From assembly GCA_965219455.1 (NCBI GenBank), contig OZ244744.1, forward strand, positions 640,001 to 704,000: a stretch of DNA of 64,000 nucleotides, in the 5' to 3' direction. Both the position numbers and the translations under genes were made by a program. Of the stretch, positions 11,681 to 24,725 are shown in pieces. Below the pieces are notes generated by a model. It worked only from the letters and a program-made list of their open reading frames with translations, did no database searches and was not told the origin of the DNA. Positions within the stretch are counted from its first letter, which is position 1; each line of letters starts with the position of its first letter. The DNA is from Candidatus Latescibacterota bacterium. GTDB taxonomy: Bacteria > Latescibacterota > UBA2968 > GCA-2709665.

Positions 11681-11738
11681 AGTGTCCCATCCCGGAAATA
11701 TGTCACCATTCGGCAAGCTATTTCCGGGACAGAACACT
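11681..11738. repeat. Palindromic MITE-like repeat family A, copy 1
   Basis: AGTGTCCCATCCCGGAAATA...TATTTCCGGGACAGAACACT; further copies at 15590-15647 and 63475-63504 (half). Confidence 0.75.
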
Positions 11739-11903
11739 AACAGTCCGTTGATAAAGTCGCTCTGCAGGCGAGGCCGAGTCATTGTGGCCGAAGACAAGGC
11801 GCGCAACCGAGTCGAATCGAGCGATTCGGCGAGGGAGCGCAACGCAGTATTTCGACCGCAAGGGCCGGCCGTAGCCCGGATGGACTTTTTCAACGGGCTG
11901 TTA
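11738..11903. mobile_element. MITE family B (non-autonomous, TA-flanked)
   Basis: Terminal inverted repeats TAACAGTCCGTTGATAAAGTC / GACTTTTTCAACGGGCTGTTA (19/21 match), no convincing coding content. Confidence 0.75.
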
Positions 11904-12944
11904 AGCCAGCGTTTCGTCGATTACGATGACGGTCTTTACGGAGTCTCCGGCTTCGGCCACGGTCTGAAATCCGACGGCGGTCTCTTCCAGGGGAAAACGG
12001 TGAGTGACGAGTTTTTTCGCGGTCACCACCCCGCGGCCAACGAGGCCCAGGGCTTCCACGGTGTCCGGGGGACCGCACGAATAGCTGGTGATAAGGGTGA
12101 TGTCTCTGGAATACAGATCGTAAGGTTCGATCGCCAGCGTCCGGCCGGGTTCGGAAGGGGTGAATAGAAGCACGGTACCGCCCACGCCCACCGAGGAGAA
12201 TCCCGCCTTCATCGCCGTCAGCGTGCCCGGACCGACCACAACCAGGTCGGCCATGTCCCCATCGGTGGCGGCGGCGACGGATTCGGTCAGATCGTCTCGA
12301 GTGACGTCGATGCCGACGTCGGCCCCGAGTTCAAGGGCTTTTCCCAGCCGGTAGGGCACCATGTCCGCCGCAATCACGGTGGACGCGCCGTAGTGCCTGG
12401 CGACCAGGGCAAGAAGCTGCCCCATTATGCCCATGCCGATGATCAGGACGCGGTCTCCCCGTTGCATTCGGGCGCGGCGTTGCAACGCCTGTACCGCGCA
12501 AGCGGTCGGTTCGACGAGAGCGCCGTCTTCGAGGGAAAGCGGGGCCGGAAGTTTCAGGGTATCGGTACTGAGGTTGATGCCGGGCACGCGGACGAATTCG
12601 GCGAGGCCCCCGGGGTCCAGCGCGGAGGCCTTCCAGGTAGGACACATTGAAAAATGCCCCCGGAGGCACAAACGGCAGTTCATGCAGGGGGCATGATGGT
12701 GAACAAAGACGCGCTCACCCGGTGAGAAACCGGTGGCTTCGGAGCCAATGTCGACTATAATCCCGGCGGGTTCGTGCCCGAGAACGATGGGCGCCTTGCG
12801 CCGAACGTACCACGGCAGGGTATCGCTGGTGCAAATGCCGCAAACCGCCATTTTGACCAGGGCGTCTTCAGGTCCGATTTCAGGGATCGGTTCTTTTTCG
12901 ATGCGGATGTCGCCGTAGTCGTACAGACGGGCTACACGCATCAT
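11901..12944 (-). CDS. Zinc-dependent medium-chain dehydrogenase
   Basis: CGICTSD, LGHEPAG, four-Cys zinc site, GxGxxG; start at 12944. Confidence 0.88.
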   Translation of the reverse strand: MMRVARLYDYGDIRIEKEPIPEIGPEDALVKMAVCGICTSDTLPWYVRRKAPIVLGHEPAGIIVDIGSEATGFSPGERVFVHHHAPCMNCRLCLRGHFSMCPTWKASALDPGGLAEFVRVPGINLSTDTLKLPAPLSLEDGALVEPTACAVQALQRRARMQRGDRVLIIGMGIMGQLLALVARHYGASTVIAADMVPYRLGKALELGADVGIDVTRDDLTESVAAATDGDMADLVVVGPGTLTAMKAGFSSVGVGGTVLLFTPSEPGRTLAIEPYDLYSRDITLITSYSCGPPDTVEALGLVGRGVVTAKKLVTHRFPLEETAVGFQTVAEAGDSVKTVIVIDETLA

Positions 12945-13999
12945 CCGGCTTTTTCCGGGCTGGGCTCGGAGGGCGGCACGACGGCGAATTTGACGTCGTT
13001 GCCCTTCTTCAGAAGAAGCTCGAAGACGTGTTTCAGGTCGGACAGGGAATAGGTGCCCGAAATCAGGCCGTTGAGGTGAATCTTTCTGTCGACCAGCATG
13101 CTGTAGGCCTTTTTCACAGCGCTTCGGCTGTAGTGGAACACGCCTTTGAGGGTAATCTGATCGTAGTGCAACCTTGCGGTGTCGAAGGTGGCGACGGTTC
13201 CCTTCGGAAGGCCGCCGAACAGGACGATCGTCCCACCCTTGGCGACCAGATCGGGCGTGCTTTCCCAGACGGCGAGTTGGCCGGTGCACTCAATCACCAG
13301 ATCCGCGCCGATGCCGGCGGTCAGTTCCTTGACACGGTCAATCGCGTTTTCCGCATCCACGTCGATAATCTCGTCCGCGCCGAGCGTAGTTGCGAGTCTG
13401 AGCCGGTATTCGCGTTTGCCGGCGACAATGACGCGCTTTGCGCCGAAAGCGCGCACGACAGCCGTATGCATCAATCCGATGGCGCCCGCGCCAATGATGA
13501 GCACCGTGGCATCCGGCCCCATAAGCACCTGGTCCATGCCGTAGACCACGCACGCGAGCGGCTCCAGCATCGCGGCCTCTTCGTAGGAGAGATCCGCGGG
13601 CTTTTTGAACATGTTGTTCCGAACGACGTGAGCCGGCACCCGGACGTATTCCGCGAAGGCGCCGAAAACCATCTCGTCGATGGCGTACCGGCAGAGGTTC
13701 TCCTGCGACTTCATGCAGTACACGCATTCGCCGCAAGGCGCGGTGGGCGCTGTCATCACCTGGTCGCCCGCCTTGAATTTGGTAACTCCCTCGCCGACTT
13801 CGAAGATATCGCCGGAGAACTCATGCCCCAGCGGCGTTGGCGTGGGAATTTTCGGGTGGCCGCGACGGAACGTCTTCAATTCGGTACCGCACGTCAGTGC
13901 CGAACGCACCCGGACGACCACTTCCCCGGGACCCGCGCCGGGGATGTCGACGTCCCGCAATTCAAGGCGACCTGGTTCAAGAAGAAGCGACGAAAGCAT
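12941..13999 (-). CDS. Zinc-dependent medium-chain dehydrogenase (sorbitol/threonine DH-like)
   Basis: LGHEFSG, CGECVYC...C, GAGAIG. Confidence 0.88.
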   Translation of the reverse strand: MLSSLLLEPGRLELRDVDIPGAGPGEVVVRVRSALTCGTELKTFRRGHPKIPTPTPLGHEFSGDIFEVGEGVTKFKAGDQVMTAPTAPCGECVYCMKSQENLCRYAIDEMVFGAFAEYVRVPAHVVRNNMFKKPADLSYEEAAMLEPLACVVYGMDQVLMGPDATVLIIGAGAIGLMHTAVVRAFGAKRVIVAGKREYRLRLATTLGADEIIDVDAENAIDRVKELTAGIGADLVIECTGQLAVWESTPDLVAKGGTIVLFGGLPKGTVATFDTARLHYDQITLKGVFHYSRSAVKKAYSMLVDRKIHLNGLISGTYSLSDLKHVFELLLKKGNDVKFAVVPPSEPSPEKAG

Positions 14000-22620: not shown

Positions 22621-22650
22621 CCCTCGCTCCTGGAAGGGATTGGTATTCAA

Positions 22651-23058
22651 GCAAGCGGGCCTGTAAGCCGAGTTCTGTCGTCCGGCGCAGTGCGCCCGAC
22701 GGATGGCCATTTATCTGGGACGCCGGTTGCCCGGCGCCTCTACGCAGCCTACCCGAGCGTAATATTGAGACGGGCCGCCTCTTCGCTCCTATTTGGCCTT
22801 GCTCCGGATGGGGTTTACCGTGCCGCTCCCGTCTCCGGGAGCGCGGTGGGCTCTTACCCCACCGTTTCACCCTTGCCCGCAACGAAACCGTAGTTTCGCC
22901 CGCTGGCGGTCTGTTCTCTGTGGCACTTTCCTTCGGGTTGCCCCGCCTGGGAGTTACCCAGCATCCTGCCCTGTGGAGCTCGGACTTTCCTCACCCATAA
23001 CAGCCCGGATGGACTCTTTCAACGGGCTGTTATGGGCGCGGCCATCCGGCCCGCTTAC
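22651..23058 (-). ncRNA. rnpB: RNase P RNA, type A
   Basis: GAGGAAAGTCCG, AGTGCCACAGA, GGGTGAAACGGTGGGGTAAGAGCCCACC, GGTAAACCCC, ACAGAACTCGGCTTAC; P1 pairing GUAAGCGGGCC/GGCCCGCUUGC. Confidence 0.97.
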
Positions 23059-23090
23059 CTGAATTGTGGAACCGTGAACCGCTCATCGGC

Positions 23091-23513
23091 TCACGATTTG
23101 GGTTTTAAAGCAGTTGATATTCCAAGATTGGCCAGGCGGTCGGCGTGTTGATTCTCCGTACGCAAGACGTGGCGGATCCGGAAGAGGTCAAACGACCCGG
23201 CAATTTCACGGGCGCTTTGATACAACGGCAACAGCTTCTCGTTCTTTACTTTGTATTGGCCGTTCATCTGCCGGACGATCAATTCGCTGTCTGAAATGGC
23301 GTTGACACGCGTCTTACCCAGTTTCCGGACGATCTCCAACCCCTTGATCAGGGCCTTGTATTCCGCAACGTTGTTGGTGGCATTGCCGAGAAAACCGGAA
23401 TATTCCTCAATTACCTCGCCTTCGCATTCAACCCGGACGCCGATGCCGGCAGGGCCGGGGTTTCCCTTTGCCGCACCGTCGACGTAGAGCGTGATGACGC
23501 CCGTGCCGGCCAC
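23091..23513 (-). CDS. rnhA: Ribonuclease HI
   Basis: DGAAKGNPGPAG, TNNVAEY, DSEL, NQHADRLAN. Confidence 0.92.
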   Translation of the reverse strand: MAGTGVITLYVDGAAKGNPGPAGIGVRVECEGEVIEEYSGFLGNATNNVAEYKALIKGLEIVRKLGKTRVNAISDSELIVRQMNGQYKVKNEKLLPLYQSAREIAGSFDLFRIRHVLRTENQHADRLANLGISTALKPKS

Positions 23514-24340: not shown

Positions 24341-24417
24341 TGGTGGGCGATACTGGACTCGAACCAGTGACCTCTGGTATGTGAAACCAGCGCTCTAACC
24401 AGCTGAGCTAATCGCCC
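24341..24417 (-). tRNA. tRNA-Val(CAC)
   Basis: Cloverleaf GGGCGATTAGCTCAGCTGG...anticodon CAC...GTTCGAGTCC...CCA. Confidence 0.95.
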
Positions 24418-24650: not shown

Positions 24651-24725
24651 GACCCCGTCGTTCAGAGGTTAGGACACCGGGTTTTCATCCCGGCAACGGG
24701 GGTTCGATTCCCCTCGGGGTCACCA
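24651..24725 (+). tRNA. tRNA-Glu(TTC)
   Basis: GACCCCG acceptor stem, anticodon TTC, GGTTCGATTCC, CCA end. Confidence 0.95.

Follow-up and report, generated by a model that had tools for sequence, protein, structure and literature searches.

How does a helix of RNase P RNA, an essential ribozyme, come to match the end of a transposon that is dispersed elsewhere in the same genome? The question is raised by a 64,000-nt stretch of a Candidatus Latescibacterota genome (contig OZ244744.1, positions 640,001 to 704,000; hereafter the window), for which an initial annotation, made from the letters alone, had proposed that helix P3 of rnpB was built from a collapsed non-autonomous transposon (MITE). 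Fifteen species of the genus, of which this genome is G000, were compared with 26 genomes from neighbouring genera. The features concerned are as follows.

22648..23057, minus strand: rnpB, bacterial class A RNase P RNA, 410 nt, aligned to Rfam RF00010 over model positions 1-367 of 367.
22992..23038, minus strand: helix P3 in its present form (RNA positions 20-66), from the Rfam alignment and RNAfold.
23001..23029, plus strand: MITE-derived core of 29 nt, in which the terminus CAGCCCG abuts the right-end module GATGGACTCTTTCAA-CGGGCTG.
22997..23000, plus strand: left flank ATAA, a former copy of the target site (the family makes 4-bp NTAN duplications) that now pairs with the right flank.
23030..23033, plus strand: right flank TTAT, a target-site copy; the same TTAT stands next to GGGT in G013 and G003.
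11741..11900, plus strand: reference full-length MITE, 160 nt, with 21-nt terminal inverted repeats that are 90% complementary.

The rnpB gene reaches 307.7 bits with the Rfam model RNaseP_bact_a (gathering score 100, E 8.6e-100) and is the single RF00010 match in a genome-wide search. Its P1/P2 pairing and the P4 strand GAGGAAAGUCCG are aligned with high posterior probability, and this P4-strand core, which follows P3, is unchanged in G000-G031 and G033-G040 and one base off in G032. The Rfam alignment places P3 at window 23038-22992, around the segment flagged by the initial annotation, with 9 model pairs and 23 loop-inserted nucleotides. On the RNA strand P3 reads CGCCC-AUAA-CAGCCCG-UUGAAAGAGUCCAUC-CGGGCUG-UUAU-GGGUG. 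The segment had been called self-complementary, and together with its flanks it is predicted by RNAfold to form one continuous 15-bp stem (15-16 bp in P3 as a whole) with a 15-nt loop and a minimum free energy of -29.0 kcal/mol. The genes 5' of rnpB on the same strand encode an RNase H-like protein and a CT398-like zinc-ribbon protein, and pyrF lies on the 3' side. The RNase H-like/CT398-like pair is kept upstream of rnpB across the genus at 79-84% nucleotide identity, and past it, about 1.3 kb upstream of rnpB, are two tRNA genes (24344-24417, minus strand; 24651-24722, plus strand).

The match between 23002-23032 (genome 663002-663032) and the MITE end at 11873-11903, on which the proposal was founded, is confirmed by BLAST at 30/31 nt (96.8%; positions 136-166 of the MITE query). 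The window contains a 22-nt end motif three times, at both ends of the element at 11738-11903 and in P3, and a match was found in 0/100 shuffled sequences. The P3 core lies on the plus strand in the direction of the window's reference MITE, hence antisense to rnpB. Its flanks, ATAA and TTAT, are not identical; they are reverse complements of each other and lengthen the helix.

What kind of element is it? The 11738-11903 element was compared by BLAST with the whole genome (5,844,228 bases, 58.3% G+C) and gave 236 matches, 35 of them near-full-length (at least 163/166 nt at 86-100% identity, the query included). The MITE assumed by the initial annotation is thus a real dispersed family. Its best-conserved part is the 31-nt right end, which has 74 matches in the genome when as many as 6 mismatches are allowed; the terminal inverted repeats of the family, 18-21 nt long, are conserved across copies. 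Pairing of left and right ends gave 51 elements in the genome, which fall into the following classes when sized from TA to TA.

165-167 nt: 32 elements.
133 nt: 2 elements.
103-124 nt: 7 elements.
64 nt: 3 elements.
58-59 nt: 3 elements.
Larger: 4 elements.

The 4-bp flanks are identical in 35/56 pairs and differ by one mismatch in 15/56, compared with 1/56 in a shifted control. The TA borders described in the initial annotation are therefore present, but the duplication is a 4-bp NTAN, mostly YTAR, with CTAA, TTAG and TTAA the commonest. Because these direct repeats of four bases sit just outside it, the element proper runs CAG...CTG and measures 160 nt. Outside the duplications CC is found on the left in 18/56 copies and GG on the right in 14/56, against a background of about 8%. 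The reference MITE itself is flanked by CTAA (11737-11740) and TTAA (11901-11904), and its two neighbours, both named by Pfam, are genes for a tautomerase and an alcohol dehydrogenase. The stop codon of the alcohol dehydrogenase ORF (11901-13289, minus strand) falls within the right target-site copy TTAA. Since its target is YTAR, the family can land on TAA or TAG stops at gene ends.

The right end also holds an internal CAGCCCG about 30 nt from its tip. This heptamer repeats the left terminus CAGYCCG in direct orientation and is complementary to the right terminus CGGGCTG. A deletion between the two direct repeats would give precisely the 29-nt core found in P3. The CGGGCT microhomology that had been held responsible for the collapse is this same repeat read on the other strand, and is best written CAGYCCG, as a left terminus plus an internal copy.

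The family thus shows inverted repeats, a target duplication, and small, non-coding copies dispersed over a 5.84 Mb genome. It is carried by 15/15 genomes of the genus and 0/26 genomes of other genera, and it is polymorphic for presence at the orthologous P3 site, where G001 and G011 have no insert and the 13 others have one. In a search of public records an exact 25-nt MITE end was found mostly in metagenome-assembled genomes titled Candidatus Latescibacterota (80 listed of at least 112 stretches); among the listed matches some are titled Gemmatimonadota, and one 868-kb contig is titled Thermoguttaceae. These titles could reflect inconsistent labels, mis-binning or transfer. No cultured carrier is evident among the listed record titles, so function would be testable only heterologously.

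Is there an autonomous partner with the same ends? The initial annotation had expected a transposase, and none was found in this genome. End pairs 250-4000 nt apart, with at most 1 mismatch per 11-nt end motif, enclosed a group II intron reverse transcriptase, a PPK2-like gene or host genes, and no transposase. A looser search of the same genome (up to 4 mismatches, 600-4000 nt) was too noisy, and no partner was seen among the matches listed. Insertion sequences with DDE_Tnp_1 form at least 8 groups (39 matches) in the genome; seven of eight have ends other than those of the MITE, and the boundaries of one group could not be delimited. Several of these groups apparently duplicate CTAG, TTAG or CTAA targets. 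DDE_5 gave no match in this genome. A 4-bp YTAR duplication is a trait of IS5 and IS701-type elements, and the target preference of the MITE fits that type; a transposase or ends matching it were not found in this genome. Because no transposase-bearing partner was found in the genome, the name MITE rests on structure and copy behaviour. Two loci met in this search may be recorded. At L042 (genome 4658351-4660458) a MITE copy flanked by CTAA/CTAA is interrupted by about 1.9 kb encoding a 456-aa protein that resembles a group II intron reverse transcriptase (YADD motif, by eye). At L233 (genome 5618186-5620035) a 496-aa tandem PPK2-like gene, also named by eye, lies between a 160-nt and a 104-nt MITE; both outer flanks are ATAA, which gives the locus the appearance of a composite unit.

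How far does the long P3 extend among relatives? One rnpB copy was found in each of 41/41 genomes searched. Outside the genus P3 is short in 24/26 genomes: GCCC-NNNN-GGGT in those of the same family (n=7), and mostly TCCC-TTTT-GGGA in those of the neighbouring family (n=17). The other 2/26, G037 and G038, have a longer P3 of unrelated sequence. These two genomes belong to the same order (loci L039 and L038), they lack the MITE, and their P3 is extended by GC-rich sequence with repeated CCCGAGG; elsewhere, then, P3 grew by other means. MITE-derived P3 inserts are confined to one genus, where they occupy the same loop site in the following forms.

G012: full 160-nt MITE.
G003: a variant of about 125 nt whose interior differs (about 72% internal match to G000 copies).
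G013: a 59-nt form, its TTAT/TTAT duplication intact.
G000, G005, G009: 35-nt forms.
G002, G004, G006, G007, G008, G010, G014: a 10-nt core CAGTCCGCTG between the flanks, in an 11-bp helix with a UCCG cap.
G001, G011: no insert; 5-nt loops ATTTA and TTTTC.

The short, full-length and collapsed alleles that the initial annotation expected among relatives are therefore all found, the collapsed ones with about 125, 59, 35 and 10 core nucleotides, and 0/26 MITE-free genomes share the long P3, so distant relatives do not undermine the proposal. All the insert alleles are predicted to form one continuous extension of the helix, with energies of -10.5 to -98.2 kcal/mol compared with -4.6 to -5.6 for the empty ones. 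The flanks ATAA/TTAT in G000 and GTAA/TTAT in G003 are complementary now and were originally direct repeats, while G013, probably younger, retains TTAT/TTAT with two mismatches. Metagenomes were also scanned with the 5' strand of P1/P2. This returned 95 loci, of which two continue into the P4 motif, one unrelated and one a remnant of the type of clade B (defined below); the remaining 93/95 lack the motif, are probably not rnpB, and were discarded.

The P3 segment derives from the MITE, its insertion site is the P3 loop, and the alleles form a series at that one site, each with a predicted helical fold. MITE family and P3 inserts share the same limit, a single genus, as an insertion of the one into the other would have it. 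The following scenario is, with high confidence, the best explanation overall. The ancestral P3 would have been a 4-bp helix with a tetraloop, GCCC-NTAN-GGGT, into whose loop a 160-nt MITE entered. Transcribed within rnpB, the near-palindromic element would pair its terminal inverted repeats together and stack coaxially on P3, directed away from the catalytic core, and the ribozyme would tolerate it because it acts as such an extension. The interior would then have been deleted between the left terminus CAGYCCG and the identical heptamer about 30 nt from the right end, leaving 29 nt, after which the two target-site copies would have drifted to the perfect complementarity of ATAA/TTAT. The hairpin would presumably stay in the mature RNA, where it may be neutral or mildly useful.

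Does the element shrink where it sits, or did it arrive small? The MITE family does collapse in place, as is visible directly at two orthologous sites. One is P3 itself, where the full element of G012 and the 35-nt form of G009, two closely related species of one tight clade, have in common an irregular right junction, CTG-CTKAT-CGGGT, unlike the KTAT-GGGT found in others. The other is a control locus just downstream of rnpA, where an orthologous MITE in seven clade-B species measures 160, 160, 146, 100, 95, 84 and 68 nt (L234-L240, about 40-180 nt from rnpA) with its right-end 30 nt almost invariant; a pattern search gave no match there in G007, the eighth species of the clade. Because of this copy, both RNase P genes in clade B carry a MITE in or beside them, which is probably a coincidence. 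The shrinkage by deletion put forward in the initial annotation is thus real at these loci. For the lineage of G000 itself it is probable and no more, since stand-alone 35-nt copies with the same junction exist elsewhere and such a pre-collapsed unit could insert directly.

The P3 insert may accordingly have come as a 29-nt hairpin plus its 4-bp duplication, a mobile mini-element or even the basic module of the family, with no 160-nt stage. The junction pattern TANCAGYCCGGATGGAC is found in 15/15 genomes of the genus with 1-15 matches each, compared with 1 match over all genomes for a reversed control. By our own reading, 35-nt hairpins standing alone at unrelated sites make up about 22 of the 30 junction loci examined, the others being 2 rnpB sites, 3 within longer copies, 2 unrelated and 1 ambiguous; some stand-alone copies are bordered by perfect 4-bp duplications (for example CTAA/CTAA at genome 3545874-3545908). 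Other deletion classes likewise recur with a single junction (three 64-nt copies; two 59-nt copies and a third), conservation within the family is highest in the right-end module, and an insert of 29 nt would cost the ribozyme less than one of 160 nt. However, a 7-nt direct repeat dictates the junction, so recurrent deletion yields the same product at each locus, and of the 18-21-nt terminal repeat no more than 7-10 nt remain in the left arm of the supposed mini-element. Large inserts are also tolerated, as full-length and 59-nt elements are present in P3 of other species, and collapse in place is seen at the two sites above. Arrival in collapsed form thus seems possible but rather doubtful, and collapse in place is somewhat the likelier history of the P3 copy in this lineage. 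As a separate observation, G007 (L081) and G003 (L098), which belong to two distant clades of the genus, share a free-standing 35-nt hairpin between genes at orthologous positions. The two hairpins are identical at 34/35 nt within a 3-kb locus of 89.5% identity, with about 280 nt around them nearly identical by eye. The 35-nt form is therefore old and stable here, and can persist or be conserved over the long term.

There is a further question, how many times did the element enter the P3 loop? An rpoB tree was built from 3,276 columns of 21 genomes, leaving out G018 (partial gene) and the secondary Rpb2-like sequences L075-L080. It gives three clades.

Clade A (support 100): G012, G001, G009.
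Clade B (support 100): the seven remnant-bearing species and G005.
Clade C: ((G003, G011) 99, G000), G013.

A local tree, made without G017, G018 and G019, agrees on clades A and B and differs on placing G000, G003, G011 and G013; the rpoB tree was preferred, and the inner branches of clade C were taken as unsettled. No single simple history fits the distribution of alleles on the rpoB tree. The empty alleles are nested among filled ones, G011 being the sister of G003, and G005 with 35 nt falls among the 10-nt remnants. Moreover, the insert of G000 has the opposite orientation to those of G003, G005, G009, G012 and G013, the five others whose orientation is readable, which calls for a loop flip or an insertion of its own. 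With a single old insertion one has to assume losses, a loop flip, and allele exchange or re-invasion; many independent hits would need a target much hotter than the modest preference measured.

Could the inserts nevertheless be repeated, independent hits on a hot target, four or more of them, and not the outcome of decay, loss, flips and exchange after one or two old insertions? Two orientations, different interiors, the intact duplication of G013 and the empty alleles nested in the tree all speak for separate events, and the P3 loop resembles the preferred target in the CC on its left and the GG on its right that are enriched around copies. The preference is modest, however: CC and GG occur together in 3/56 copies, and 1001 free CCNTANGG (CC-NTAN-GG) sites are available in the genome. 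By a rough estimate, several hits at one site would be very unlikely without selection. The right flank KTAT-GGGT is common to all insert-bearing alleles but G005, G009 and G012, no empty allele has an NTAT loop, and a single remnant junction is common to seven clade-B species. Sequence divergence is compatible with an old event as well: the P3 copy of G012 is 90-94.5% identical to G000 copies, and orthologous MITE copies within clade B are themselves about 90% identical (174/194). The C in GGACTCTT, found in P3 of both G000 and G005, was tried as a mark of common descent and rejected, the variant being present in 13/15 genomes with 1-6 copies each. Four or more independent insertions therefore look unlikely to us, although far from negligible; the number of events at the P3 loop may lie anywhere between one and about five.

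Then why is the insert retained in 13/15 species? One explanation is that a longer P3 would aid the ribozyme or its protein contact, so that the helix would have been retained, shortened and adjusted through compensatory changes, with the 125-160-nt inserts perhaps cut by RNase III. If true, this would explain the retention, the P3 of the bacterial family being unusually short (4 bp and a tetraloop), and in the species with 125-160 nt the RNase P RNA would work as two base-paired pieces. We regard such recruitment as improbable. As regards the predicted fold itself, 93.9% of cells are paired in the remnant helix of the seven clade-B species, compared with 29-46% when the partners are slid. One pair shows a double compensatory change (UG, CG, GC) and four are altered on one side only. 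The covariation runs in the right direction and is not significant, 70/500 shuffles giving values at least equal to those observed.

The last alternative, that the long P3 is an assembly artefact or rnpB a decaying pseudogene, concerns the data themselves. Two contigs from two runs of two studies bridge the P3 insert with 0 differences and at least 31 nt on each side.

X1 record 8: window 22967-23300, bridges the P3 insert.
X5 record 30: window 22967-23123, bridges the P3 insert.

As X1 may be the source sample, it is X5 that provides the independent support, and the chimera named in the initial annotation as a possible undoing of its proposal is contradicted by this exact bridging. RNA-library contigs (X15 and X16, one study) are identical to the window at 22659-22815 and 22902-22994; none among those listed covers 22997-23033, and they stop at 22992-22996, the point of divergence from co-occurring relatives. 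Four contig joints that skip the insert, TATC, TGCC, TGT and TCTTGCGA, were considered as empty alleles of this species and none proved to be one. We read the first three as the RNA-strand loops GATA, GGCA and ACA of short P3 in other genera of the family (G016/G020, G017 and G015/G019 types, respectively), and the fourth is an 8-nt form from another relative. The protein gene rnpA is present in 15/15 genomes of the genus, and PF08745 (PIN_5), which we take for the HARP domain of the protein-only type of RNase P, was found in 0/15. With a single copy, rnpA present and PF08745 not found, rnpB is probably in use, as judged from gene content. Although the assembly is metagenome-derived, repeats can be misplaced and the listed RNA-library contigs do not cross the insert, an artefact or pseudogene is hardly conceivable given the bridging contigs, the insert at the same site in 13/15 species from independent assemblies, and a single-copy, full-length rnpB with a high Rfam score that is accompanied by rnpA without PIN_5 and matched exactly by RNA-library contigs.

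Are there precedents? No published description of a MITE in RNase P RNA or rnpB was found in literature searches, which were thin on subscription journals. STRR repeats, tandem heptamers in P12, were reportedly described in cyanobacterial rnpB by Vioque in 1997. As in our case, genome-wide repeats are tolerated there in a peripheral helix of a bacterial RNase P RNA; the difference lies between tandem heptamers in P12 and an inverted-repeat transposon with target duplications in P3. To our knowledge there is no allelic series of empty, full and collapsed forms for the STRR repeats of rnpB. Intervening sequences of 23S rRNA are cut out by RNase III to give fragmented rRNA. They too are extra hairpins at the helix tip of an essential RNA, patchy among close relatives, but they are excised, whereas the P3 insert is known here from the gene sequence. 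P3 also varies in length naturally, from the RF00010 consensus of 9 bp and a loop to the longer P3 of E. coli, and such a peripheral helix varies without loss of function; what differs in the present case is that the source can be named, a transposon, and that intermediate stages are preserved. Finally, one paper (PMC5896051) reports that some MITEs lie in structural RNA genes, citing Ogata et al. 2002 on Rickettsia palindromic elements. These resemble the P3 insert in being palindromic mobile elements inside a functional RNA gene that is not destroyed, and differ in element family, host and RNA. New with respect to these precedents are the type of element, the helix, and above all the full series from an empty site to a 10-nt scar.

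What does the locus mean for the evolution of RNase P RNA? The length of peripheral helices differs by lineage. The mutational source of such differences can almost never be seen, but at this locus it can. A palindromic transposon that lands in a hairpin loop gives an instant helix extension, which can be trimmed via its own short repeats while the target-site copies turn into base pairs. One genus keeps the stages of this process, empty, 160, about 125, 59, 35 and 10 nt, in an essential ribozyme. They provide a natural allelic series for the tolerance of extra P3 in RNase P, and a worked example of mobile DNA seeding expansion segments in catalytic RNAs.
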